Of a stretch of 64,000 nt of DNA, positions 1,324 through 60,072 are shown one piece after another. The stretch is taken from positions 428,049-492,048 of the forward strand of contig MFJV01000001.1 in NCBI GenBank assembly GCA_001780985.1, in the 5' to 3' direction. Below the pieces are notes generated by a model. It saw only the letters and a list, made by a program, of their open reading frames with translations, searched no databases and had not been told where the DNA came from. The stretch comes from Candidatus Gottesmanbacteria bacterium RIFCSPLOWO2_01_FULL_43_11b. GTDB lineage: Bacteria; Patescibacteriota; Microgenomatia; UBA10105; UBA927. Made by a program: the position numbers and the translations under genes. Each line of letters begins with the position of its first letter. The first letter of the stretch is position 1.

Positions 1324-2115
1324 TTAAGTTAATTTCACAAGTCTTCCGTATTCACGTGCTTTTTCAAACATAATGGAAAAAAACCAAATCGAAAAAACGA
1401 GATATACGGTGTTTAGTAACAGAGCAAACACGAGATTAGTTGAAATTACATTACTCTCAAACATGAATCTTCTCATTTCCTCAAACACGTACGTTGTAGG
1501 CAATACGATGGCTATTTTTTGCGCCCATGGGGGGATAAAAGACAGGGGGTAAAGGACACAAGAAAATGGTTGAACGATAACGACGATAGCCCAGGCAATT
1601 TCCTGCATTGACAAGCCATACCGAAGGATAAGCCCATTGACAATGAACCCCAAAGAAATTCCAAACAAGAGTAAGTTTATGAAAAAAATTGGTATCAACG
1701 GACCGAAAGAAGAAAAAATATTAAAATTGTAGAGCACCATTGATCCTATCGTTAAACTGAGCGCGGTTGCAAACATTTTTATTATCCCAATAACCACTAA
1801 AGCAGTTAAATATTCTGTTTTTGTTAACGGCGAGGCAAAAAGATTTAAAATATTTTTGTTCCACAACTCGTCGATGAAATTGATTGAAACTTCCCGCTGC
1901 GGCTGAACGACAATTTCCCAAAAAATAATGGCGCCAATAATTACAGTGATAAAAGAAAAAGTGCTTGAAGAACTACTTTGAAGAAAAGAGATCGCCAGTC
2001 CCCAGATGAGGAGTCCAAAAAACGGCCACCCGAACGTCCACATGAATCGCTCCGGCGATCTAGGCCAGATATACAAATGTCTCAGAATGATTGCCGCTAT
2101 TCTATGTGTACTCAT
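1324..2115 (-). CDS. ABC-2 type transporter permease
   Basis: 263-aa polytopic hydrophobic protein. Overlaps the upstream ABC ATPase gene. Confidence 0.55.
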   Translation of the reverse strand: MSTHRIAAIILRHLYIWPRSPERFMWTFGWPFFGLLIWGLAISFLQSSSSSTFSFITVIIGAIIFWEIVVQPQREVSINFIDELWNKNILNLFASPLTKTEYLTALVVIGIIKMFATALSLTIGSMVLYNFNIFSSFGPLIPIFFINLLLFGISLGFIVNGLILRYGLSMQEIAWAIVVIVQPFSCVLYPLSFIPPWAQKIAIVLPTTYVFEEMRRFMFESNVISTNLVFALLLNTVYLVFSIWFFSIMFEKAREYGRLVKLT

Positions 2116-3025
2116 ACCTACCCCTCATAGCGTGTAAGAAAAAATCTTCCAGCGTCGGTTTTTCAATGGTGATTTGAGAATATTTAAGACGCGCTAAGGA
2201 CAATCTCCCTAACAACTGACCGACGTTTTCTTCCTCTGTGTCAACCTGAACCTCTTTCTCGTCGAAAGAAAATGTATACTGATAATTCTTCAGTAACGTT
2301 ACTGCTTTCGTTCTCTGGACATCAAAGAGAAGAAGCACTCGACAAAACTTTACTCTCTTTGCCAAGCCAGTAGGAGTATCTTCGGCAATAATGTTTCCTC
2401 TGTTGAGAAAGATGACCCGGTCACATATTTCGGTAACTTCTGCCATGTTGTGAGACGTAAAAAGAACTGACATATTATCTGTCTTAACCTTCTTCTTAAT
2501 ATATTTCCTGATAAGATCGGCTACATCAGGGTCCAAAAATGCTGTCGGTTCATCAAGGAGCAAAAGCCGCGGATCGTTAATAAATGCCTTACAGAGATAG
2601 AGACTCGTCAATTGACCGGAAGACAACGTGTCGGTTATTGCATCTTTCAATGCGGTAAGTCTGAACTCTGTTATCAATGTATCAATCTTCTGTTTATACT
2701 CTTCGACTTCGTACAGTCTGCCAAAAATATGCAAATTTTCCCAAACTTTAAGCCGCCATGGTAAGTTGACGTACGCTGCTGAAAAGTTCATTTGTTTCAA
2801 AATCTTGACCCGATGTTCCTCAAACGGCAATCCAAAAACGTTGATCGTGCCCAAGGTCGGCGTTGTTAACCCAAGCAGCATATCTATAGTCGTCGTTTTT
2901 CCCGCTCCGTTTGGACCTAATAATCCCACGATCTCCCCTTCCTTGACCGAAAAGGAAATATTATCAACGGCTGTGAAGTCACCAAATTGTTTGGTTAAAT
3001 TTTTAACCTCTAAAATATGCTCCAT
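2102..3025 (-). CDS. ABC transporter ATP-binding protein
   Basis: Walker A GPNGAGKTTT, signature LSSGQ, Walker B LLLLDEPT. Confidence 0.85.
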   Translation of the reverse strand: MEHILEVKNLTKQFGDFTAVDNISFSVKEGEIVGLLGPNGAGKTTTIDMLLGLTTPTLGTINVFGLPFEEHRVKILKQMNFSAAYVNLPWRLKVWENLHIFGRLYEVEEYKQKIDTLITEFRLTALKDAITDTLSSGQLTSLYLCKAFINDPRLLLLDEPTAFLDPDVADLIRKYIKKKVKTDNMSVLFTSHNMAEVTEICDRVIFLNRGNIIAEDTPTGLAKRVKFCRVLLLFDVQRTKAVTLLKNYQYTFSFDEKEVQVDTEEENVGQLLGRLSLARLKYSQITIEKPTLEDFFLHAMRGRYEYT

Positions 3026-14042: not shown

Positions 14043-14516
14043 TTACGGGTCCTTGGAATATCGTTCTGTCGTGCCAACCGAGACGAGAGCAGCAAATAAT
14101 CTTCCAAGAGTCCATTTGCCTGCATTATTATCCCCTGCCTGAATTCTTGCTAATCGCTCAACGCTCTCTAGTGAGTCCAAAAAAGCGCCTGGTGCTACTA
14201 TATCTAATGATGCCAAACGAGAGTTCTCAAATAAATCATCTACCTTATCTTGAATTAAATACGCAATGAATTTTCTTGTCGTTCTCCAGCGACCGTCTCT
14301 GTCAAAAATTACTCCCGCTTTCTCCGTTCCAAGCACTACTCCATTAAAGGTTATTTGATCTCCATCAATAATTTCCACTGCAATGTCTCGCCCTCCAACC
14401 TTTCCACGGACAAGATTTCCGGGTTCTAAAAGTTTAAAATCGCGCTTCCAAAAACCTGATGTTATCTCAACAAAAGGCATGAACGTGATTCTATCAAATA
14501 GATAGTGGTATATCAA
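14043..14516 (-). CDS. Hypothetical protein
   Basis: 157-aa ORF with 4-nt overlap to the upstream gene; no motif recognised. Confidence 0.4.
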   Translation of the reverse strand: MIYHYLFDRITFMPFVEITSGFWKRDFKLLEPGNLVRGKVGGRDIAVEIIDGDQITFNGVVLGTEKAGVIFDRDGRWRTTRKFIAYLIQDKVDDLFENSRLASLDIVAPGAFLDSLESVERLARIQAGDNNAGKWTLGRLFAALVSVGTTERYSKDP

Positions 14517-15106
14517 AATGGACCATTCAAACGCCTTTCGTATTTTAACTCACCTCTGTCTTTATACTGCTCGGTTGACGCTAATCCTTTTTGTACAAGC
14601 AACTCATTTACGAGCGCTCCGTCGTTGCACCCCTCTGGATTTTCCATTAATCCCTCCCGGGAAGAATTGTATGTAAGATGCATGTAATTTGCCGGCAAAA
14701 ACGTTGGTTCATTTTCACATGCAATCCAAACCCACGCGAGAACCCGACCGTATTTGTCATCCTGATATCGGTCATATTCAAGATATACACGTTTGTCATT
14801 GACGATTGAAGTAAGGGTATCCCGCGCTTCCACCCAGCGTTTTTCGCCGCGATTGGGAGCATCAATACCGATCATTCGCACTTCCACACCGCTTTGGAGG
14901 CGAAACGTGTCTCCGTCATAGATTTCTCGCGCCACTCCGGTTTTGGGAAAAAGCGATTTAACGGCATAAAAGTCACGAGTATTTTGAAAAACATCAGGTT
15001 TCCAACCCAAAACCAGTGCGGTGAGAATTCCGGGAATCAGAACCGCCGGAATACCAAGCTTTAATAACCTCTTTCTCGTCCACCTTGCATTTTTATTCTT
15101 CGCCAT
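14513..15106 (-). CDS. Membrane-anchored thermonuclease (SNase-like)
   Basis: N-terminal TM; YDGDTFRL...IGIDAPNRGE catalytic region; VNELLVQKGLA. Confidence 0.6.
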   Translation of the reverse strand: MAKNKNARWTRKRLLKLGIPAVLIPGILTALVLGWKPDVFQNTRDFYAVKSLFPKTGVAREIYDGDTFRLQSGVEVRMIGIDAPNRGEKRWVEARDTLTSIVNDKRVYLEYDRYQDDKYGRVLAWVWIACENEPTFLPANYMHLTYNSSREGLMENPEGCNDGALVNELLVQKGLASTEQYKDRGELKYERRLNGPF

Positions 15107-15129: not shown

Positions 15130-15801
15130 TTAATTATATAATCCAGCAATCCATCCGTGTATTTTTCGAAGCAAATCAGTGCTTTTACTAACTCGAATTC
15201 GTAAAACACCGTGATAATTTTCTGGGTTATCGTATATTTTTTGCCATTTTACCTTCTGAAAAAAAGGTTTTTGAAATTGTTGGTCACTCACACGCAGTAT
15301 TTTTTGCCAATACTTTTGAATAGGTTGAACCTTATCTTTATATGTTTCGTTTAGCCCTAATCGAAATCGCAACCGATCAATGCTAATATTACAAGCCTCT
15401 TTTAACCAACGAACCATAAAACGGATCATATTGGGATCAGAATTGGAAAATCCCATCAGATTATCCTTCTTAAATCCCTCTGCCCAATATAAAGCAATAC
15501 CAGCAATAAATAATTCACGAGGCGTAAGTTCTGCCACTTCAATGATACCCCTTTGAAACAATTGTCTTATCTTGTCTTCTTTTAATTGTTTTTGCCTTTC
15601 AATATATACTTTTCTCTTGCCATAATAAGGATCGTGTGCGTTTTTTCCTAATACTTGGATTTGTTGAGGAGACAAAACAATATCTCGACACCATAGGCTT
15701 GCGGTGCTTGAAGAAACTCCAAGTTTTTTCGCAATGGTTTTAATTCCTAATCCGCTCTTGCGTAAATCGCGAGCTATTAGCCGAAGTTGAGATTTAGCCA
15801 T
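15130..15801 (-). CDS. HTH-domain DNA-binding protein of unknown function; LAGLIDADG-like resemblance is weak
   Basis: N-terminal HTH (IKTIAKKLGVSSSTASLWCRDI). Central FIAGIALYWAEGFKK. Sits next to the intron-containing tRNA. Confidence 0.45.
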   Translation of the reverse strand: MAKSQLRLIARDLRKSGLGIKTIAKKLGVSSSTASLWCRDIVLSPQQIQVLGKNAHDPYYGKRKVYIERQKQLKEDKIRQLFQRGIIEVAELTPRELFIAGIALYWAEGFKKDNLMGFSNSDPNMIRFMVRWLKEACNISIDRLRFRLGLNETYKDKVQPIQKYWQKILRVSDQQFQKPFFQKVKWQKIYDNPENYHGVLRIRVSKSTDLLRKIHGWIAGLYN

Positions 15802-15840
15802 ATGGTAAAATTATCTTCTAACCAGGGTTCGATTTCAAGA

Positions 15841-15869
15841 TTGACGCTAATTTCAAATAAAGTTATAAT
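15841..15869 (+). promoter_or_regulatory. sigma70-like promoter for the split tRNA gene
   Basis: TTGACG (15841-15846), 17-nt spacer, TATAAT (15864-15869). Confidence 0.5.
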
Positions 15870-15889
15870 AGACAATGTTGTTAGTCCAG

Positions 15890-16154
15890 CGCGGGGTAGT
15901 GTAAAGCAGCACAGAAGGCTCACAATATGGGCTCATCGAGAGGAAACTTTCGCGTGATAATTCGGCTATATCGGTGGAATCCCGCTTAGCGGGACAATAC
16001 CGAGGGAAGATCCGCCAGCGGAGGAAACCCGTAGAGACTACACGCCGAACCCCGCCCTACGCGAAGGGCGGGGATGATATAGTCCGACACTCCGAGCAAT
16101 CGGAGAAACAGTAAGCATAATCTTCTAGACCTGGTGCGACTCCAGGCCCCGCAA
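15890..16154 (+). tRNA. tRNA-Met(CAU), initiator-like, interrupted by a group I intron (exons 15890-15920 and 16116-16154; 70 nt mature, no encoded CCA)
   Basis: Acceptor stem CGCGGGG/CCCCGCA plus discriminator A is identical to E. coli tRNA-fMet, including C1xA72. D stem GTGT/GCAC; anticodon stem GAAGG/UCUUC; reconstituted loop CU|CAUAA; T arm CCUGG-UGCGACU-CCAGG. Atypical 6-nt D loop and G55. Confidence 0.55.
15921..16115 (+). ncRNA. Group I self-splicing intron in the tRNA anticodon loop (between U33 and C34)
   Basis: P7 strands GUAGAGACUACACG (16031-16044) and GAUAUAGUCCG (16075-16085). P3 UUCGGC/GCCGAA. Q-like GAUCCGCCAGCGG. P8 CCCCGCCC-uacgcgaa-GGGCGGGG. P9 CUCCGA-GCAA-UCGGAG. Terminal G at 16115; exon U at the 5' splice site. 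Confidence 0.6.
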
Positions 16155-17855
16155 CAAGGTAGGAATGGAGGCATATTTTGCCTCCATTTTTCTTATTCTG
16201 TCGCTCTCCTTATTAGGTGCGAACATTTCTCCGATAATAGGTGCCTCACTTTTCATCTTTTTGAGGGTAAACAAGTACGGCGGGCTGTCCAAACGCAATG
16301 TTCTATCGGTAAGCGTTAGGTGCGAACCTAAGTCCATGAGGATACGCCGCTTTAACTTCGCGTCTCCATTTGCAAATCGCTCCCGTACTTTGGTAGCGAA
16401 GGTAAACGCCTCGTTAATGTCCTCTGCCGCCTGCACCATGCGGTTGTCTATAGTACCCAACTGTTGCTCCAAGCCTTTTAGCTCGGTTTCAATGGCTGAT
16501 TTTTGGCTTCTGTACTGCTCATCGGAAAGCAGGCTTCCGTCAGTATTCTGCGGCGAGATTTTGAGCTGAATGAGGTTATTGAGCTTTGCCCTGCACGCAT
16601 CGTGTGCCCCTTTGATAGAAGCAACAGTATCCTCTTGGAAGTCTTTTTCCGACTCGTTCATGGCCGCTATCTGCCTCAGTGCCCAGTCCATAAAGACTGG
16701 TGAAATCTCTATTTCTGCCAGTTTTGCGTCTATCTGTTGTTCAAGCCTATCCAGCCTTACCCCTTTTTGATGACATAATCGACTTGTACGCCGTTTACAA
16801 CGGTAGTAGGTGTAGTGCAGGATGGTCGGGTTACGCATGTTCTCAATCTTCGTGTCGCATCGTGTGCAGGTGTCTTTATTCTTCTTGGTAATGGAAAACT
16901 TCCATTTGCACGCCGTACAAATCACCTGATGTTTTTCCTCAGCAGTGATGGTGGCACCGCAAAAACCGCATTTGAGAAGCGAAGTGAAGGCGTATTCATG
17001 GTGTTGCAGCGTGTATTTACCTCTCCTGCCGAGAAGTACCTGTACCTCGTTAAACAACTCCTCGCTTATGGCGGGTTCGTGGCTCCCTTTCCACCACACC
17101 CCGCTTTTTTCTGGATACTCAAACTTGCCGTAGTAGAAAGGGTTAGAGAGGATTTTATAGATCATACTCAACGACAAAGGCCCACCGCCAGAACGCCGCT
17201 TTTGTCTTGACCGATACCCCCATTCATTCTTTGCCATGAGGTAAAGCTCCATAACTGTTGTACCCTCACGAAACAACTCAAACATTTTTCTGATAAACGG
17301 AAGTCTTTCTGGATCTGGTAACACCTTCCGAAAGCCACTTTCTGTTTGTCTGTCATTAAAGTACCCTTGTGGTGCCACTCCTGGTCGCCATCCGTCACGA
17401 CACTTCTTTTCCAAACCTCGACTTACCACTTCGCTTTTGTCGTCGCTATCTTTCTTTGAGATTCCAAACTCAAGGCTAAGCATAAACTTATCCGTTGGAG
17501 TGTTATAAAATGAACGAGCTGGCGTCTTAACTTCAATCAACTTGCCTTCATCCATGAGGTAAATAACCCAACCAGCGTCAATAGGATTCCTTGCCAAACG
17601 ATTTGGGTGCCACACAATAATCGCATTTGCCTCTCCGCTTTCTATCCTTTTTAACATCGCCCCAAAAATTTCTCTCCCTGGTTTGTGAGCCGTTTTTGAC
17701 TCTTGAAGCACCTCAACGAGATGTAAATTTTCCTTAGTTTTTAATCTCTCAATCTCATATAACTGTTCGGGGAGCGACGCCGCCTGTCGCTCTTTGTTGT
17801 CCTCGGAGCTTTTTCTAGCGTAGCCAATGTATTTGAGAGAAATATTAGTATCCAT
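16125..17855 (-). CDS. Large serine recombinase (resolvase-domain integrase with recombinase, zinc-ribbon and coiled-coil regions)
   Basis: YARKSSEDNKERQAASLPEQ catalytic region with Ser; CxxC pairs. Start taken at MDTNISLKYIGYARKSS; the ORF track extends to 17885. C-terminal codons overlap the tRNA 3' exon and attL. Confidence 0.85.
   Translation of the reverse strand: MDTNISLKYIGYARKSSEDNKERQAASLPEQLYEIERLKTKENLHLVEVLQESKTAHKPGREIFGAMLKRIESGEANAIIVWHPNRLARNPIDAGWVIYLMDEGKLIEVKTPARSFYNTPTDKFMLSLEFGISKKDSDDKSEVVSRGLEKKCRDGWRPGVAPQGYFNDRQTESGFRKVLPDPERLPFIRKMFELFREGTTVMELYLMAKNEWGYRSRQKRRSGGGPLSLSMIYKILSNPFYYGKFEYPEKSGVWWKGSHEPAISEELFNEVQVLLGRRGKYTLQHHEYAFTSLLKCGFCGATITAEEKHQVICTACKWKFSITKKNKDTCTRCDTKIENMRNPTILHYTYYRCKRRTSRLCHQKGVRLDRLEQQIDAKLAEIEISPVFMDWALRQIAAMNESEKDFQEDTVASIKGAHDACRAKLNNLIQLKISPQNTDGSLLSDEQYRSQKSAIETELKGLEQQLGTIDNRMVQAAEDINEAFTFATKVRERFANGDAKLKRRILMDLGSHLTLTDRTLRLDSPPYLFTLKKMKSEAPIIGEMFAPNKESDRIRKMEAKYASIPTLLRGLESHQV
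16144..16156. repeat. attL core direct repeat (tRNA positions 63-73 plus 2 nt)
   Basis: AGGCCCCGCAACA, identical to 22371-22383. Confidence 0.6.
16167..16192 (+). terminator. Intrinsic terminator 13 nt after the tRNA 3' end
   Basis: Stem GGAGGCA/UGCCUCC, loop UAUUU, then AUUUUUCUU. Lies antisense within the last codons of the recombinase gene. Confidence 0.5.
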
Positions 17856-17867
17856 AATCACAATTAA

Positions 17868-17911
17868 GGGCAACGGTGGACACAACCTTTTGACGGGTTG
17901 AACCGTTGCCC
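17868..17911. promoter_or_regulatory. Perfect 10-bp inverted repeat in the recombinase 5' leader
   Basis: GGGCAACGGT-24 nt-ACCGTTGCCC, 13 nt upstream of the recombinase ATG. Confidence 0.3.
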
Positions 17912-18135
17912 ATAAAAGAACCCGTCGTATTCAGCTGTGTCCATATTTATCGTATCCTCTCTACTTCCTTCTGTCAAGCAATTTTGGTACACGATTGCCA
18001 TACACGAATTTTACGAGATCAATGAGCTTCGTGCCATAATCAATAGCCTGTTCTCGGCTTATTATTACGCCATATTCTTTCTGGTAGATCAGTTGAAATT
18101 CGTTGATGGCTTTTTCGCTTAATTGCATAGTCAAT

Positions 18136-18324
18136 TTAAGATTTATCCTCCACTGCGAGAAGCTCCGCTAAATACTCCTCCAGAAGCCCCTTAATGGTTG
18201 TAGAAGACTTTGCAGCTTTCACCTTGAGGAGTTGATGCAGGCTGGCGTCTATACGGACTTGTTTTGTCGTTTTTTTGTCACTTTGTCGACTTTGCATATT
18301 CTTTTCTCCCTCTTCTCTCTCCAT
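18136..18324 (-). CDS. Ribbon-helix-helix (CopG/Arc-like) DNA-binding protein
   Basis: 62 aa; VRIDASLHQLLKVKAAKSSTTIKGLLEEYL. Confidence 0.5.
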   Translation of the reverse strand: MEREEGEKNMQSRQSDKKTTKQVRIDASLHQLLKVKAAKSSTTIKGLLEEYLAELLAVEDKS

Positions 18325-22923: not shown

Positions 22924-22995
22924 GTCAGGGTAGCTCAGTGGTAGAGCACCAGTATCATAAACTGGTCGTCGAGAGTTCGATCCTCTCCCCTGACA
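22924..22995 (+). tRNA. tRNA-Met(CAU), elongator-type (G1-C72); could also be tRNA-Ile2 (lysidine). Intron-less.
   Basis: Manual fold: acceptor GTCAGGG/CCCTGAC; D arm GCTC-AGTGGTA-GAGC; anticodon arm CCAGT-ATCATAA-ACTGG; T arm GAGAG-TTCGATC-CTCTC; discriminator A. Confidence 0.85.
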
Positions 22996-23089
22996 CAAGA
23001 GTTTTGTTTTGAGGCCGCCACGCGGCCGAAATCCCGCCACGCGGGACGATCCATGCCGCTGGCACTTCGTTTACTCAGTGCAAGCACTT

Positions 23090-54299: not shown

Positions 54300-56411
54300 T
54301 TATGATCCTGTTTGAATAACGGGACAATCGAGACACCCGCGCGTGTTATTTGAACACCCTAGTACCTCCTGCGCTTGCGATGGTGTCAACGGTAAAAGAT
54401 CAAGAATGTTTCCTGGACCACTTTGAATGCCAACGTGAAGGTGGTTGCTGGTTGATGAGCCGTTATTATCAACTTTTCCAATTTGGGTTACCCCCTTTGT
54501 TACAGATTGTCCTTTGGAAACCAAATTAATGGTTGTTAAAGAAAGATGTGCGTAGCGTATAATTGCTCCGTTCGGCGTTTCAATGTCAACATAATTTCCC
54601 CACCCCTGATTACAGCGGGATGTTCTGGATGGTCCTACCGCAGTGTCAGCGCATCTACCTCGTACGTCTGAAATTGTTCCATCCGTTATGCTGTAAACTT
54701 CTGTGCCATAATTAGCCCCAATGTCAACGGCATTCATACTTGCATGGGAAGATCTACACGTTGCGTACGGTCCTTGTGTAATGTAGCCGTTTGTAGGCCA
54801 GAGACAGTCTCCTGTTGAGCACGGGGTAAGCGTACAGCGGGGATCCTCGGGTGTTTGCGAGCAGTTAATGATTGGTCCGCCGCTGCCATAACCACCGCCT
54901 ACGCGTTCCCCTTGAAACGGTCCAAATTCTGAAACTGTTTTGAAAAAGAAAAGTATCGGAAAACCGATGACGACGAAAAGAAGAGAGGCAATGACGATCC
55001 ACTCAGCCGAAGCCCAAAAACTTTGTGGTTTTCCGGGCCCTCTCCTGCCGAAAAACGATGCAAAAACGCTTCCCCCAAGCCAGCCGAGAATCACTCCGGG
55101 AAGCCCACCAATGGCTCCAACAAGTCCGCCAAACCAGCGACCAACCGTTCCGCTACCAGCTTTTGCAACAACAGCACTCGTTGCTTTTCGAATCCCCCAA
55201 CCGGAAGCTTCGTTAAAAAACAGATGGAATAGTCCGGGAGAACGACTGTGGGAGTCAGCAACCCTGACTTGATTAACTGTGTATGATTCCGGCGCAAGCC
55301 CTAAGACTTCTAAAACAAATACATCTACAGCAACAGGAGGCCCGGCAATAGAACTGGCGAGATCCCAGATGAATGAGCGCGCCCGACCGCCGCCTTTCCC
55401 AAAAACTTTATTTCCCCGTTCTATAGCATTCTGAAAAACAGGCGATTCAACAATCAGGCTCCCCACTCTCTCCTGAGTTTTTTCAATCGCTCCCTCAATT
55501 TTTCCTAACCAGACAGACCGTACGATATCATCGCGGACGTTTTTGGGATAGATAGAAAGAAGCGCATCGGCAACGCCTTGAACAGGCTGCCGGAGCCCCG
55601 AAACTCCAATCTTTGAGAAAACCCCGGGTTTGATTTCAATATCCGATGAAGGGGTTGCCTCGAGCGCTTCGGCAACACGGGCAAGTCGATCCACAACCTC
55701 AAACGAAGGCGCTGGATCAACGCTCGCTAGAGTAGCGTACGTTTCAAGCCATCGTGCTTTGTCGGTGCCCGACCACTCAAACATTTTTTGAGTTATTTCT
55801 TCTTCCGAAGGAAGTGGGGCAGCAAGGACTCGAATTGTCTTATCGGCTTTTTCTAAAACAATTTCTGCAATCGGTTTAACCCGCTTTCCAAATTCTTCAG
55901 ATCGGGCGCTTGTTGCGGCAATTCGAACTAAAGCCAACCCCATTTCCTCGCGGAGCTTCCGGGGGTCCCTCGTTTCTTTTGCGAGTTTTGAAAGTTCATC
56001 AACAAGGCGTTGTTGAAGCGCTGGCTCATTCGGGAAACGGGCAAGAGCGCGTAGTTCATCTACATATGCTCCGGCGATGCGCCCGATGTTTTGACGCCGC
56101 GACCCCTCGATCTTGTCGGTAATGTGGGGAAGATTTTCAGAAATTGACTCAACGAGAACTCCTGGAGCGATCTGCTCAAATTCCGCCTGTTGCTCGGGCG
56201 GTGTGTTTTCTTTGAGAAACAATACAAATTCTGTTGAAAATTGCTCGAGAATCTCTAAAAATTGGGTGTTTGTAAAGACAAATGGAACTCCGGAGAGAGC
56301 GAGGTTTTTTTTAAATTGCTCGTATTTTCCCGGATAAAACTCGTGGGCAATGAGGAGGTTTTTGAGTCCCTGCGTAAATTTTTGTTCGTCTGCCATAGGA
56401 TCATTTCTCAT
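54300..56411 (-). CDS. Membrane protein with C-terminal M23 (LytM) peptidase domain
   Basis: Large cytoplasmic N-domain, TM segments, then Cys-rich M23 domain (GWGNYVDIETPNGAIIRYAHLS...HLHVGIQ). Confidence 0.65.
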   Translation of the reverse strand: MRNDPMADEQKFTQGLKNLLIAHEFYPGKYEQFKKNLALSGVPFVFTNTQFLEILEQFSTEFVLFLKENTPPEQQAEFEQIAPGVLVESISENLPHITDKIEGSRRQNIGRIAGAYVDELRALARFPNEPALQQRLVDELSKLAKETRDPRKLREEMGLALVRIAATSARSEEFGKRVKPIAEIVLEKADKTIRVLAAPLPSEEEITQKMFEWSGTDKARWLETYATLASVDPAPSFEVVDRLARVAEALEATPSSDIEIKPGVFSKIGVSGLRQPVQGVADALLSIYPKNVRDDIVRSVWLGKIEGAIEKTQERVGSLIVESPVFQNAIERGNKVFGKGGGRARSFIWDLASSIAGPPVAVDVFVLEVLGLAPESYTVNQVRVADSHSRSPGLFHLFFNEASGWGIRKATSAVVAKAGSGTVGRWFGGLVGAIGGLPGVILGWLGGSVFASFFGRRGPGKPQSFWASAEWIVIASLLFVVIGFPILFFFKTVSEFGPFQGERVGGGYGSGGPIINCSQTPEDPRCTLTPCSTGDCLWPTNGYITQGPYATCRSSHASMNAVDIGANYGTEVYSITDGTISDVRGRCADTAVGPSRTSRCNQGWGNYVDIETPNGAIIRYAHLSLTTINLVSKGQSVTKGVTQIGKVDNNGSSTSNHLHVGIQSGPGNILDLLPLTPSQAQEVLGCSNNTRGCLDCPVIQTGS

Positions 56412-59400
56412 TTACCGGCTCAACGGTAAATATGGGTCGTGCTGGCATGTTTGGTTGAGGTGAGGGTGTCGGTTGTGCCGGTTGTTTTTGCGCTCTTGAC
56501 TCTAATTCCTGCGGTTTTGTGGTGGCAAGCGCATGTTCTTCAGGGCTTGCAATAACGCGCATTGCCGCATGAGCAGGTCCGGCAAAAAGCAAACCCTCGC
56601 CGATGTCTGCAGCCAGCAATAAATGTTTTTCTCCCTCAGACAGGTAAAAAATCTCTGCGACCTTATCAATTGCAGCTGAGGACTGTTTGAGAAGAATTTG
56701 CATGGAACTATTCTGAATAATTGCTTTCCCCAACTCCACCGCAAGGAAATCTTCAACATCTTGAGTAATCGTCGTGACCCCAAGGTAGTATTTCCGTGCG
56801 CGCTTGGCAATCGAATTTAGAAATGTTGCCGAATCCGGGTATTTCATCATGTACCACGCCTCATCGACGATTAAAAGTCTTCTTTTTGTGTCTTTTCTGA
56901 TTTTGGTCCAGATAAAATCAAGAATAAGATACATGGCAATGGGGCGCAGTTCCTCCTCAAGATCGCGGATGGAAAATACGGTGAGCGGATTTCTAATTTC
57001 CACATTGGTTTGCGCATCAAAAATTCCCACCATGCTGCCTTTGACAAACTTTTCTATGCGGTCAGCTAAGCCCTTGGCCAAAGGCTCCTCCATACCCACA
57101 AGTGTTTTATAGAGATCTTCCATCAGAGGAGGTTCAGTCGATTGAGACGCTGGATCTGGGGTAATTCCCTTTTGCTTGTACGTTAAGACCAACGCTCGGT
57201 CAAGGAGCGCGTCTTCGCTCGGAGTAAGTTTGCCCATAACAACCCGGAAGAAACCGTGAAGGGAGAGAATTTTTTGGTTCAACTCGCTCTCTTTTTCTCC
57301 CTTATGCTGTAAAAGAGCTAAGTCAAAGGGATTTATTTTTGTATTTGTGCCAAACTGGAATCGAATATACTCGCCCCCCAATGCATGGGTAAGCGCTTCA
57401 TATTCACTCTCTGGGTCGATAATAATAACTTCTGTGTCAAACATAAGCGAACGCATCACTTCAAGTTTCACCATGTAGCTTTTTCCGGAACCGGAATTAT
57501 GAACAAATACCCCCCCAGAACCACCCAGAAAGACTTCATTGTCTACTGTTAAATCATAGACAAAGGACTCATTGTGCTTGATTTGTTCAATATTTACGAC
57601 TGGATCCCAGAAAAGATCCGACCGAGCGAGTTGACGTAGATGATGGAGTTTTTTTTCGGCGTGGCGCAAGGTCAATTGTAGCGAACGGTATCGTTTGGAA
57701 AGGACGGACACCGCATTTTGAATTGGCGGATAGGCGGTATCGCCGGGGCGCCTCGCCTCATTTCGGATAGTTGTCCAAAGCGAATTGTCATATCTCTGAA
57801 GAGAAATGCCGATTTCTTGAAATACATCATAGAGCTCGTGTTTGATTTCGGGGAGGGAGATTGTTTCACCAGAGACGGTTTTCCAGGCGCGAAAGACAGT
57901 GGTTGCCTTGGGAATGACCGCACGGTGTTTCATAAGTTTCCATGTGTGTCCTAACTCTTTCCAAAGAGCTCTGTGAAGCTGTTTGTGTTTGATGCCACGG
58001 GAAATAATGGCGTCAACGGAGGGAAGGTTCTTCAGTTGCATGACGCGGCCACGAAGCGACCGAAGTTCGATAATGCGATTTTCCATGAGAGTAATAATCT
58101 CAATGAGTTGTTCCCGTGACGGAGAAAAAACGCCTCTTTTAAGCGGAGAAAGGTTATATGGTGCTCGTATGTCATCACCCTGATATAACTGCGCATGGAG
58201 TTTTTGTAGCGTGCGCGATAACGTGGGAATCGTATCCACGTTCGTATTGGGATGTTTTCCCAACAACCCTAAAAGTTTTTGCTGTTTTCTGAGAGTGAGA
58301 AAACCAATGGAGCTTGCAAACCTCGTAAGATGATCTCCTCCAGAAATTACCAGCTCATAATAGGTATCGCCGGTGTGTTTGCTATTGGTAGCTCTCTTCC
58401 ATTTTGTTCGGATTCTCCCTACGATTCCAAATCGAAGAAGTAAATAACAAATGTCTGATATTAAGTCACGAGATTTTGACATACAAGCAACTTCCCACCC
58501 CGACACGGTTCCGTCGCCCTCGTAGTATGCTCGCAGATACGCGGCAATCTGTGTGTTTGACAAAGAGAAAATAATGGACGGAACGCGCTTTTGACCTGAT
58601 CTTCCGCCCGCGCCCAGAGCAGAAAACAGCTTGGCATACGCATTTGGTTGAATATTGTACCCACAAAGAATACGACCAGAAGCATATCGGGGTGCTGTTT
58701 TAGCGCCGATTCCGCTGGTTGCGTTCTGAATGGCGGAAAGCACAAAGGGATCTCTGTTGTAAATGGTAAGCGTTGACGGGGAAAGGTACCCTTCGCTTGT
58801 CGTAAGCCCCAGAATCGTTAGAAGATTTGATTCCAAAGGAATAGTTTGAGGTAATCCCATTGGCCACGAAGGCACGAATGTTTTTGGATAGATAGGGCTC
58901 GTCAACCCGATTGACTCTGGGAGAAATCGTGGAACAGGCACGGCTTCTCCTACGCGCACCGCCTCACCTCGCACCGATCGCACGCGGCCATCTCTCAAAA
59001 CAACCAAGCTGTGGTCAGCAGTAACGGTAATGTGTCGTCCGCTTTTTGTGGTAATTTTATAAAGTTTTTCGCGTTTTGAAAGTGGCTTGCGCGCAGCAGT
59101 AGCGACTTGGGCCCAGCGTCCTTTGAGCTCATTGTTGTAAGCGTAGACCTCAATACCCGGAAGCCTTACTCCCTCCATCTCTTCTTCTCGGTGGGTAATA
59201 CCATGTTTGTTAATGAGAGATTCTACAAGGTTGCCGATCGTTTCCATTTTTGTTTGACCGTTTTGCCGCACGAGAACCGGTTCCCACCTTGCTATCGATT
59301 TCCCAAAAACAACCGTGTTAGCGTTTTCTAAAGTGAACCTATCAAAAACAATGAGACTGTCGTTTCCTTCGTTAATCCCGTAGAGGATGCCTTCATTGGC

Positions 59401-60072
59401 GGTAAGCTCACTCGTTGTAAACGGGAAGGTGGTGGCAAGTGAAGTTGTGTCCATATTTCGTAAGATAACGAGTTTATCCTGGCTCATGGGGAGGGTGGTT
59501 TTGAGCCCCTCTTCCATCTGAAGGATTGCTTTTTTAGTGACAATGAGAAGCGATCCCAGGGTTGCCTCGACTTGCTTCGTTGTTCGGTCGAGGTCGTCGA
59601 GGCTTTTTGCCGGAATGGTGACGTAGAGGCCAAATTGGAAAAACCGCTCAGATCCTTTTGCAAGTTCTTGTTGAAGAGCAAGCGCATCCTCGAGCGCTAC
59701 CTGAATAGAAGGTTCAATGACTCTGCCGCGTTTCATATCGGATTGGATCGTTGCCTCCATTTCTCCGACTTTTCTCTTAAGATTTTCCAGAACCTCCTCG
59801 CTCCTGGTCGGATAAACGTACATGGCAATATCGAGGGTATGTGAGAAAGAGATGAGCGGTTCGAGCCAGTTAGCTGATACATAGCGCGGGTAGCCGGCCA
59901 CGAAGAGGGTGCGGAAGTATCGGTCGCCGATTTTGAGGTGGTCAAAATCAACCTCTATTGCAGGTGGTGCAATCAGATCCCGCACGGAAAGGGGCTCGCC
60001 GGTATCAGCATTCGGCCTGTTATCCTCAGGCATGGGATTTATGAATTTTTTAACAAGCGTTGTTATATTCAT
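56401..60072 (-). CDS. VirB4/TraC-like type IV secretion ATPase interrupted by an intein
   Basis: Split Walker A: NTVVFGK then intein then SGSGKS. Walker B LLIVDEAWYMM. 622-aa extein after removing the intein. Confidence 0.75.
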   Translation of the reverse strand: MNITTLVKKFINPMPEDNRPNADTGEPLSVRDLIAPPAIEVDFDHLKIGDRYFRTLFVAGYPRYVSANWLEPLISFSHTLDIAMYVYPTRSEEVLENLKRKVGEMEATIQSDMKRGRVIEPSIQVALEDALALQQELAKGSERFFQFGLYVTIPAKSLDDLDRTTKQVEATLGSLLIVTKKAILQMEEGLKTTLPMSQDKLVILRNMDTTSLATTFPFTTSELTANEGILYGINEGNDSLIVFDRFTLENANTVVFGKSIARWEPVLVRQNGQTKMETIGNLVESLINKHGITHREEEMEGVRLPGIEVYAYNNELKGRWAQVATAARKPLSKREKLYKITTKSGRHITVTADHSLVVLRDGRVRSVRGEAVRVGEAVPVPRFLPESIGLTSPIYPKTFVPSWPMGLPQTIPLESNLLTILGLTTSEGYLSPSTLTIYNRDPFVLSAIQNATSGIGAKTAPRYASGRILCGYNIQPNAYAKLFSALGAGGRSGQKRVPSIIFSLSNTQIAAYLRAYYEGDGTVSGWEVACMSKSRDLISDICYLLLRFGIVGRIRTKWKRATNSKHTGDTYYELVISGGDHLTRFASSIGFLTLRKQQKLLGLLGKHPNTNVDTIPTLSRTLQKLHAQLYQGDDIRAPYNLSPLKRGVFSPSREQLIEIITLMENRIIELRSLRGRVMQLKNLPSVDAIISRGIKHKQLHRALWKELGHTWKLMKHRAVIPKATTVFRAWKTVSGETISLPEIKHELYDVFQEIGISLQRYDNSLWTTIRNEARRPGDTAYPPIQNAVSVLSKRYRSLQLTLRHAEKKLHHLRQLARSDLFWDPVVNIEQIKHNESFVYDLTVDNEVFLGGSGGVFVHNSGSGKSYMVKLEVMRSLMFDTEVIIIDPESEYEALTHALGGEYIRFQFGTNTKINPFDLALLQHKGEKESELNQKILSLHGFFRVVMGKLTPSEDALLDRALVLTYKQKGITPDPASQSTEPPLMEDLYKTLVGMEEPLAKGLADRIEKFVKGSMVGIFDAQTNVEIRNPLTVFSIRDLEEELRPIAMYLILDFIWTKIRKDTKRRLLIVDEAWYMMKYPDSATFLNSIAKRARKYYLGVTTITQDVEDFLAVELGKAIIQNSSMQILLKQSSAAIDKVAEIFYLSEGEKHLLLAADIGEGLLFAGPAHAAMRVIASPEEHALATTKPQELESRAQKQPAQPTPSPQPNMPARPIFTVEPVNEK
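57496..59298 (-). other. Intein (~601 aa) with LAGLIDADG homing-endonuclease domain, inserted in the VirB4 P-loop
   Basis: N-terminal Ser (SIARWEPVLV...GNLVE, block A). TVTADH (block B). ILGLTTSEG and AYLRAYYEGDG (LAGLIDADG-like). C-terminal VYDLTVDNE...GVFVHN followed by +1 Ser. Confidence 0.6.

Follow-up and report, generated by a model that had tools for sequence, protein, structure and literature searches.

One of the four classical types of bacterial tRNA intron, fMet.2Ug, is inserted after U33 of its host tRNA (Williams, bioRxiv 10.1101/2020.01.27.920355), and a recent survey of 95 complete Patescibacteria genomes included two from Microgenomatia, GCA_001029755.1 and GCA_013426185.1, whose introns it listed as "Met (CAU) 33/34," with their sequences in a supplementary table (Nakagawa et al. 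2026; PMC13011429). The survey gave lengths of 184 to 894 nt for bacterial tRNA introns, assigned no Patescibacteria tRNA intron to subgroup IC, and, having sought endonuclease genes inside the introns only, inferred limited mobility since the introns lack such genes (PMC13011429). Phage introns can move by collaborative, or trans, homing (PMC3984707, PMC6083498, and PMC2790892); in the pairs F-CphI beside the psbA intron of cyanophage S-PM2 and T4 mobE with the I-TevIII intron, a group I intron with no open reading frame (ORF), or a defunct one, has a free-standing endonuclease gene at the same host gene. Here we analyze a 64,000-nt stretch, hereafter the window, of the genome of Candidatus Gottesmanbacteria bacterium RIFCSPLOWO2_01_FULL_43_11b (assembly GCA_001780985.1, contig MFJV01000001.1, positions 428,049 to 492,048), in which a tRNA(CAU) gene is split between U33 and C34 by what is almost certainly a genuine 195-nt group I intron (15921-16115) and is flanked by a free-standing ORF of 223 codons. 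The explanation that we favor, on balance, is that this ORF-less, self-splicing intron is mobilized in trans by a free-standing homing endonuclease, the product of the neighboring ORF. The split gene, its framing signals, and the flanking ORF are laid out as follows.

15130-15801, minus strand: free-standing ORF of 223 aa, unannotated, divergent from the tRNA gene and 88 nt from its 5' end
15810-15838, minus strand: promoter-like site of the 223-aa ORF, TTGAAA-17-GATAAT
15841-15869, plus strand: sigma-70-type promoter, TTGACG-17-TATAAT, 11/12 consensus matches
15890-16154, plus strand: intron-split tRNA(CAU) gene of the Microgenomatia type, interrupted between U33 and C34
15890-15920, plus strand: 5' exon, 31 nt, tRNA positions 1-33, CGCGGGGUAGUGUAAAGCAGCACAGAAGGCU, read from the sequence; acceptor strand CGCGGGG, D arm GUGU/AAAGCA/GCAC, anticodon stem GAAGG, then C32 and U33
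15921-16115, plus strand: predicted group I intron, 195 nt, no ORF (Rfam RF00028, covariation, minimum-free-energy fold)
16116-16154, plus strand: 3' exon, 39 nt, tRNA positions 34-73, CAUAAUCUUCUAGACCUGGUGCGACUCCAGGCCCCGCAA, read from the sequence; CAU anticodon, T arm CCUGG/UGCGACU/CCAGG, acceptor strand CCCCGCA, discriminator A, CCA not encoded
16161-16199, plus strand: intrinsic-terminator-like element, 7 nt past the discriminator; hairpin with T run detected at 16161-16191
22924-22995, plus strand: canonical intron-less tRNA-Met(CAU) with G1-C72 (ARAGORN; Rfam tRNA, 66.7 bits)

A sequence-only reading of the window had proposed the split tRNA, the intron and its principal elements, a promoter and terminator framing them as a self-contained unit, and a coexisting intron-less tRNA-Met, and each of these was recovered. 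In a narrow Rfam scan of 15800-16250, run with laxer filters, Intron_gpI (RF00028) matched 15911-16106 on the plus strand over the full model (1-253) at 62.4 bits (E 1.3e-15), well above its gathering score, which is 50. With the exons joined across 15920 and 16116, the junction expected after splicing (...GAAGGCU followed directly by CAUAAUCUUC...), ARAGORN called a 71-nt tRNA-Met(CAT) with the cloverleaf that the sequence-only reading had drawn. The pre-tRNA has a minimum free energy of -111.5 kcal/mol (z = -5.9 against shuffles), and in the corresponding fold all four cloverleaf helices (acceptor, D, anticodon, and T) persist, while those of the intron extend from the anticodon loop. The elements that the sequence-only reading had listed (P3, P7, P8, P9 with its GCAA loop, omega-G, and the U at the 5' splice site) are all in place, and the full set, on the plus strand, is as follows.

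15917-15922 with 15928-15933: P1, in which exon GGCU plus intron CA pair with UGGGCU; U15920.G15930 wobble at the 5' splice site
15934-15942 with 15947-15956: P2, GAAA loop
15961-15966 with 16044-16049: P3, UUCGGC/GCCGAA
15971-15976 with 15998-16003: P4
15980-15985 with 15989-15994: P5
16004-16006 with 16028-16030: P6
16011-16014 with 16019-16022: P6a
16036-16040 with 16080-16084: P7, GACUA/UAGUC, forming a pseudoknot with P3
16050-16058 with 16065-16073: P8, 9 bp, GC-rich
16090-16095 with 16100-16105: P9, GCAA loop
15920: U(-1)
16115: omega-G

From P1 with its U.G wobble through the P3-P7 pseudoknot core, P4-P6, P8, and P9 to omega-G, the element bears all the hallmarks of a self-splicing ribozyme, and no ORF fits within its 195 nt. 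Homologous introns score 51 to 89 bits with Rfam RF00028, and across an alignment of 29 split pre-tRNAs U(-1) and omega-G are invariant and the cores are conserved. Among 23 aligned homologues, standard pairs occupy 93.9% of cells and compensatory changes occur in 27 of 41 pairs, both counted from a MAFFT alignment; none of 500 shuffles matched the observed pairing and covariation values, and sliding the partners by 1 to 3 columns as a control lowered pairing to 34 to 46%. Most of the compensatory changes fall in P2, P3, P8, and P9, and P7 contributes one (A-U to G-C, in locus L097).

Both framing signals of the unit are present. The -10 element of the promoter ends 20 nt upstream of tRNA position 1, and TTGAC and TATAAT or TATACT are recognizable in most of 15 homologous loci, with the spacer between the hexamers diverging; the terminator-like hairpin sits within the 3' end of a recombinase ORF on the opposite strand. 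An ATAATA-like element is kept at the position of the 223-aa ORF promoter in the same 15-locus alignment. The GATAAT of that promoter ends 8 nt ahead of the ATG, with no visible Shine-Dalgarno sequence (15802-15815, minus strand), and the mRNA of the ORF may be leaderless. Just upstream of the tRNA -35 element, in the spacer common to the divergent ORF, lies a conserved GGTTCGATT motif (15826-15834, plus strand) that is identical to the consensus 5' half of a tRNA T arm and could be an operator, part of the ORF promoter, or a relic of a tRNA fragment.

Standard tools pass over the split gene. On the unspliced genomic sequence ARAGORN called no tRNA at the split locus, its only call being the tRNA-Met at 22924-22996, and its own intron option returned none in the split-gene region, a miss that we attribute to the option expecting another intron position. 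An Rfam scan of the whole 64-kb window at the gathering thresholds likewise missed the intron, its sole match being the tRNA at 22924; since the narrow scan placed the intron 12 bits above the gathering score, we attribute this miss to speed filters. A genome of this kind can consequently seem to be without this tRNA when default annotation is used. The tRNA-Met at 22924-22995, which both ARAGORN and Rfam detect, is presumably the elongator.

We collected homologous loci by scanning one genome per species for GCGGGGTAGTGTANNGCNGCACNNNAGGCT, which yielded at least 120 loci. Among those listed, 89 are intron-less, with the exon running directly into CATAA... to give a complete tRNA, 28 carry an insertion of 184 to 266 nt at the identical site, and 3 end at a contig edge. 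The loci named to lineage come nearly all from metagenome-assembled genomes of the Microgenomates group (Woese-, Shapiro-, Levy-, Gottesman-, Ames-, Roizman-, and Daviesbacteria); many other listed loci are labeled "uncultured Gammaproteobacteria," which we took to be default labels. The Patescibacteria-like character that the sequence-only reading had assigned to the genome is correct, the product of the ORF beside the tRNA being identical to a Candidatus Gottesmanbacteria protein at NCBI. Roughly one in four of the Microgenomatia species sampled carries a member of the intron family. Homologous introns read in 36 loci measure 181 to 266 nt, and the description of the window intron as unusually small did not survive: its 195 nt are not exceptional, because published bacterial tRNA introns span 184 to 894 nt (PMC13011429).

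As a kind, the intron-split Met(CAU) 33/34 tRNA is not new; the window holds a further member of a published family. The Met(CAU) 33/34 genes of GCA_001029755.1 and GCA_013426185.1 have exons that differ from those of the window by a few bases and an identical insertion site; their introns, likewise without an ORF and in the same bacterial class, score 139 and 103 bits with a hidden Markov model (HMM) of the window family (nhmmer). The published genes have U1-A72 where the window tRNA has C1.A72, and the window copy comes from a Gottesmanbacteria genome outside the 95 of the survey (PMC13011429). It had also been said that introns at this site of tRNA-fMet are known from cyanobacteria, which is correct as far as it goes, but they are not confined there, the Microgenomatia examples being published (PMC13011429). 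The classical tRNA-fMet intron (fMet.2Ug, subgroup IC3, found in cyanobacteria and Bacteroidota) shares with the window intron its CAU host, its site between U33 and C34, and its U(-1) and omega-G (Williams, bioRxiv 10.1101/2020.01.27.920355; PMC13011429). By family HMM scores, however, the window intron is not closest to the classical introns at this site: two Bacteroidota fMet 33/34 introns reach only 41 and 30 bits, less than the 63 bits of an Arg(UCU) 34/35 intron or the 54 bits of an Asp 35/36 intron from Microgenomatia. The comparison points to a common site and gives no evidence of the same intron lineage. Some classical tRNA-fMet introns encode a PD-(D/E)XK endonuclease internally, which we take to be I-Ssp6803I, whereas the candidate in the window is external and would belong to the LAGLIDADG family. 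The pre-tRNA-Ile(CAU) intron of Azoarcus is about 205 nt long, belongs to IC3, and is inserted at 36/37 (33/34 in the window) of the tRNA-Ile2 of a proteobacterium; we know of no endonuclease associated with it. Like the window intron, it is a small group I intron that lacks an ORF and interrupts the anticodon loop of a bacterial tRNA with a CAU anticodon (see also PMC13168695).

The product of the divergent 223-aa ORF combines an N-terminal helix-turn-helix (HTH) of the resolvase/transposase type with what appears to be a single C-terminal LAGLIDADG-like domain bearing the motif FIAGIALYWAEGFK. Its homologues are all named "hypothetical" in the database. In a profile built from 20 family members, including nine distant paralogues, and compared with the sequences in the PDB, the top match was I-DmoI (E 1.9e-4, 24 bits), with profile positions 47-136 aligned to I-DmoI 60-146 and LYwaEGfK placed on LYVAEGDK; the window sequence reads LYWAEGFK. 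E108, G109, and K111 are invariant in the 20 sequences, down to 24% identity, and the I-DmoI residues aligned with E108 and K111 are, we presume, the active-site residues E117 and K120. The match reached significance only with the profile that included distant paralogues, a profile of close homologues alone giving noise against the same sequences. With an approximate I-DmoI sequence, hhalign aligned 89 columns weakly (E 0.008, probability 5%), and with an approximate I-CreI sequence the probability was 0.2%. Pfam returned HTH matches only, weak and N-terminal, with Hom_end below threshold (E 0.09 and 0.15) over the same stretch of two distant paralogues; PHROGs likewise gave HTH-type matches only. 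Two results count against the LAGLIDADG assignment: no Pfam LAGLIDADG model reached threshold for the family, and the AlphaFold2 model of the protein (mean predicted local distance difference test score 89.9) found no match in the PDB with Foldseek. Weighing these together, we consider it likely that the protein joins an HTH to a single LAGLIDADG domain in which the aligned catalytic acid is retained. I-DmoI, an archaeal rRNA-intron endonuclease, is the best sequence match of the family and has "LY.AEG.K" in common with it, but is a two-domain monomer encoded inside its intron, whereas the window protein has one domain behind an N-terminal HTH, is encoded by a free-standing gene, and presumably acts as a dimer.

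This ORF is closely linked to the intron. Homologues identified with tblastn lie directly beside the tRNA in many listed loci, and among listed loci with at least 900 nt on both sides an ORF occurs within 700 nt in 10 of 19 intron-containing loci and in 2 of 56 intron-less ones (Fisher p 5.6e-6). Stratified by tRNA sequence class, the association persists (Cochran-Mantel-Haenszel p 1e-4, odds ratio about 42). Sampling from the protein side gave the same picture, with 8 of 8 homologues from long contigs adjoining an intron-containing allele. All 19 ORFs at or above 47% identity to that of the window (the window itself, 10 loci sampled by tRNA, and 8 sampled by protein) lie 56 to 150 nt from an intron-containing tRNA; they take two arrangements, upstream and divergent or downstream and co-oriented, and come from several candidate orders and 13 tRNA sequence classes. 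The converse does not hold: 9 of the 19 intron-containing listed loci have no ORF in the locus, while close ORFs are never found without the intron. This one-way dependence, in which the ORF implies the intron and not the reverse, fits target-site immunity. In L045 and L062 the tRNA and the elongator tRNA-Met stand about 60 nt apart with no ORF, and because these tRNA genes adjoin each other in ORF-less genomes the ORF behaves as an insertion between them. The survey makes no mention of a flanking LAGLIDADG-like gene (PMC13011429), and a full-text search for free-standing LAGLIDADG genes at tRNA genes in Patescibacteria found nothing else relevant; the linkage, so far unreported, is the part of the story worth following. 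Small nuclease genes seem to gather around the split tRNA: in L121 the gene of an 86-aa GIY-YIG protein (1860-2120, minus strand) lies directly downstream of an intron-containing tRNA, and the 223-aa ORF of the window is followed by one that is staphylococcal-nuclease-like (14513-15106).

In the mechanism that we propose, the unit would be transcribed from its own promoter, exogenous guanosine would attack after U15920, omega-G16115 would dock, and ligation of the exons would give a 70-nt tRNA to be completed by RNase P and the CCA-adding enzyme, all steps drawn from established group I chemistry. The 223-aa protein, whose identity as a homing endonuclease we infer from fold, motif, and linkage, would cut an intron-less tRNA allele at or near the anticodon-loop site, and repair from a donor that carries intron and ORF would copy both elements (collaborative, or trans, homing); since the intron splits the target, the protein's own chromosome would be protected. 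The phage pairs share with the window an intron, which would protect the donor, and a free-standing gene at one host gene, but concern protein-coding genes and Endo VII-like or HNH enzymes with intron-site cleavage shown experimentally, whereas the window places the pair on a bacterial chromosome, in a tRNA gene, with a putative enzyme of LAGLIDADG type.

Several observations weigh against this explanation. Published in vitro splicing concerns other Patescibacteria tRNA introns (Asn and Asp, 35/36), not Met(CAU) 33/34. The stratification by tRNA class is a rough control for ancestry only. ORFs of 39 to 44% identity have an intron-containing neighbor in 2 of 7 loci and an intron-less one in 5 of 7, and paralogues of 24 to 37% identity lie 0 to 160 nt upstream of an intron-less tRNA-Ile(UAU) or canonical tRNA-Met(CAU); because of these neighbors the wider family must be regarded as tied to tRNA genes and not strictly to introns. 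Distant paralogues (24 to 44%), upstream and on the same strand, are found at L045 3483-4166, L062 117-854, L077 4456-5136, L097 1966-2649, L050 1620-2303, L021 3607-4290, and L070 1849-2568. Taken as a whole, and judged from the loci sampled, the family keeps company with tRNA genes that serve the AUN codon box. That the 223-aa ORF mobilizes the intron, or depends on it, is in our judgment an evenly balanced proposition, and we hold the homing step itself near that level because the phylogenetic correction is rough, the wider family is linked to tRNA genes, and WhiA offers a regulatory precedent.

WhiA is an HTH-LAGLIDADG regulator that has lost its catalytic acids, and one alternative, which we consider fairly unlikely, is built on its example: the intron would be immobile and vertically inherited, the 223-aa protein would be a DNA-binding factor on a LAGLIDADG scaffold, either regulating the tRNA(CAU)/tRNA-Ile(UAU) cluster or domesticated from a former endonuclease, and the linkage would reflect shared ancestry. 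An N-terminal HTH of this type occurs in regulators as well as in transposases, the paralogues upstream of intron-less tRNA-Ile(UAU) and tRNA-Met genes are apparently co-transcribed with them, the GGTTCGATT motif of the spacer could serve as the operator, and every ORF encountered is intact, as would suit a role in the host. Such a factor sits poorly with the family-wide invariance of E108 and K111, the residues aligned with the "AEGDK" of I-DmoI; an ORF that is found in some genomes and missing from others between otherwise adjacent tRNA genes, and that occurs in two orientations, resembles a mobile insertion; and co-occurrence with the intron in 19 of 19 cases against a background of about 24%, together with the association within tRNA classes, is hard to obtain from ancestry alone.

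The reading of the host as an initiator tRNA carries its own evidence. The acceptor stem GCGGGG/CCCCGC has G2-C71, C3-G70, and A73, with C1.A72 in place of a strong 1:72 pair, and its positions 2-7 and 66-71 along with A73 are identical to those of E. coli tRNA-fMet. In 126 tabulated homologous sequences (L001-L131), the base that faces A72 at position 1 is U in 91, C in 31, and A in 4, with G in none, and A72 and A73 are fixed. The sequence-only reading had found the tRNA odd for an initiator, and the 6-nt D loop, G55, and anticodon stem it remarked on are all present, but they are not peculiar to this gene: the 6-nt D loop, G55, and an anticodon stem of A-U, G-C, and G.U recur among the 126 homologues as features of the lineage. 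In 87 of these sequences a G as third base of the D loop goes with U or C at position 55, and in the other 39 an A there goes with G55, with no exception; because of this exceptionless covariation we read G55 as a compensated variant of the elbow and not as decay. In the window the covarying elbow bases lie within 15903-15908 and 16135-16141, and part of the Microgenomatia appears to have A:G instead of a contact of the G18:U55 type.

The surrounding tRNA genes bear on the same question. In a census covering the 64-kb window and the related loci, the other 83 tRNA(CAU) genes of those loci (roughly 1 Mb) are canonical with G1, and a canonical G1 tRNA-Met(CAU) adjoins the odd tRNA in many of them; loci L001-L120 also hold 41 tRNA-Ile(UAU) genes, often clustered with both tRNA(CAU) genes (e.g., L045 4182-4255). 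This suggests that in Microgenomatia AUA is read by a UAU anticodon and not by a lysidine-modified CAU tRNA, and therefore the two CAU classes would most simply be initiator and elongator; with a second, canonical G1 tRNA(CAU) and a tRNA-Ile(UAU) in the same loci, the odd tRNA is left as the initiator candidate. Three features speak against that assignment. The anticodon stem (A29-U41, G30-C40, G31.U39) is missing the three consecutive G-C pairs at 29-31:39-41; the D stem has U11-A24 instead of A11:U24, a mark of bacterial initiators; and the homologues are labeled Met, not fMet, in the survey, which assigned them to Met(CAU) by best intron-less match (PMC13011429). A stem of the form au/GC/gu is a natural initiator variant in some mycoplasmas and alpha-proteobacteria (PMC5389676). 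The initiator assignment, with C1.A72 and the acceptor features present and the three G-C pairs and A11:U24 missing, is plausible, not proven; we regard the split tRNA as probably the initiator. An elongator tRNA-Met or a lysidine-modified tRNA-Ile2 is the unlikely alternative: the survey's Met(CAU) label, the elongator-like U11-A24 and stem, the formal Watson-Crick pair U1-A72 of most homologues, and a census confined to the window and its related loci lend it something, and the invariable avoidance of G1 with fixed A72 and A73, the acceptor match with E. coli tRNA-fMet, the separate canonical tRNA(CAU) and tRNA-Ile(UAU) in the same clusters, and the initiator precedent for the stem all count against it.

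LAGLIDADG maturases are an established class, intron-encoded in fungal mitochondria, and if the 223-aa protein were a maturase that helps the neighboring intron fold and splice, its close homologues would likewise be expected to accompany intron-containing alleles as tightly as they do. We think this very unlikely, for the dependence is reversed, with the ORF implying the intron, which argues against an obligate maturase; the introns are independent of the ORF, as about half of the intron-containing alleles (9 of 19) have none in the locus; the HTH is of a DNA type; and the paralogues adjoin intron-less tRNA genes. That the unit is a decaying or silent pseudogene on an integrated element, its intron signature a relic, is suggested by the large serine recombinase, Arc/omega-type repressor, and ORFs with no assigned function immediately downstream and by the departures of the tRNA body from canonical form, but is scarcely credible given exons, splice-site nucleotides, and every helix kept with compensatory changes across 23 to 29 species, the perfect covariation of the tRNA elbow, the conserved promoter, and the lack of a recombinase in most homologous loci.

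The genes on that downstream side are as follows.

16125-17885, minus strand: large serine recombinase, 586 aa (Pfam Resolvase, Recombinase, and Zn_ribbon_recom; PHROG integrase, E 1.5e-58)
17961-18134: small conserved ORF beyond the recombinase
18136-18324: Arc/omega-type repressor, also beyond the recombinase

The recombinase gene ends inside the tRNA gene, its last 10 codons and stop codon falling opposite the 3' exon and variable loop in an overlap of 30 nt (16125-16154), and homologous recombinase genes in L003, L004, and L123 likewise run convergently with their 3' ends into the tRNA 3' end, both with and without the intron. The recombinase is a neighbor and is not required for the intron story. 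It may belong to an integrative element for which the 3' end of the tRNA serves as the site of use; the window contains no second copy of the 3' half of the tRNA within 3 mismatches, and direct repeats in the 12- to 24-kb region were only short and at chance level. Serine integrases need no long repeat. The possibility that the window is phage DNA was ruled out by its cellular genes, which encode, among other products, DnaA, FtsH, two class I aminoacyl-tRNA synthetases, DprA, a ComM-like Mg chelatase, and DUF4012. A gene for a 1223-aa TraG/VirB4-like P-loop ATPase (56401-60072, minus strand) is interrupted by an intein that contains a LAGLIDADG_3 endonuclease domain (Pfam Intein_splicing and LAGLIDADG_3), which is a second selfish element in the window.

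Taken at its broadest, the proposal that the introns of initiator-type tRNAs in Microgenomatia spread and persist through an HTH-LAGLIDADG gene 56 to 150 nt away, whose product cuts intron-less alleles, is a tentative one that we rate slightly short of even. If true, it would extend trans homing beyond phages to tRNA genes on bacterial chromosomes, and the sister subfamilies at tRNA-Ile(UAU) and elongator tRNA-Met genes would make up a broader class of endonucleases with tRNA genes as their targets. It would also overturn the published inference that the tRNA introns of Patescibacteria are largely immobile. Should the 223-aa protein be active on the intron-less allele, this would explain the patchy occurrence of these introns across Microgenomatia, their movement without an internal endonuclease gene, and their persistence in very small genomes.

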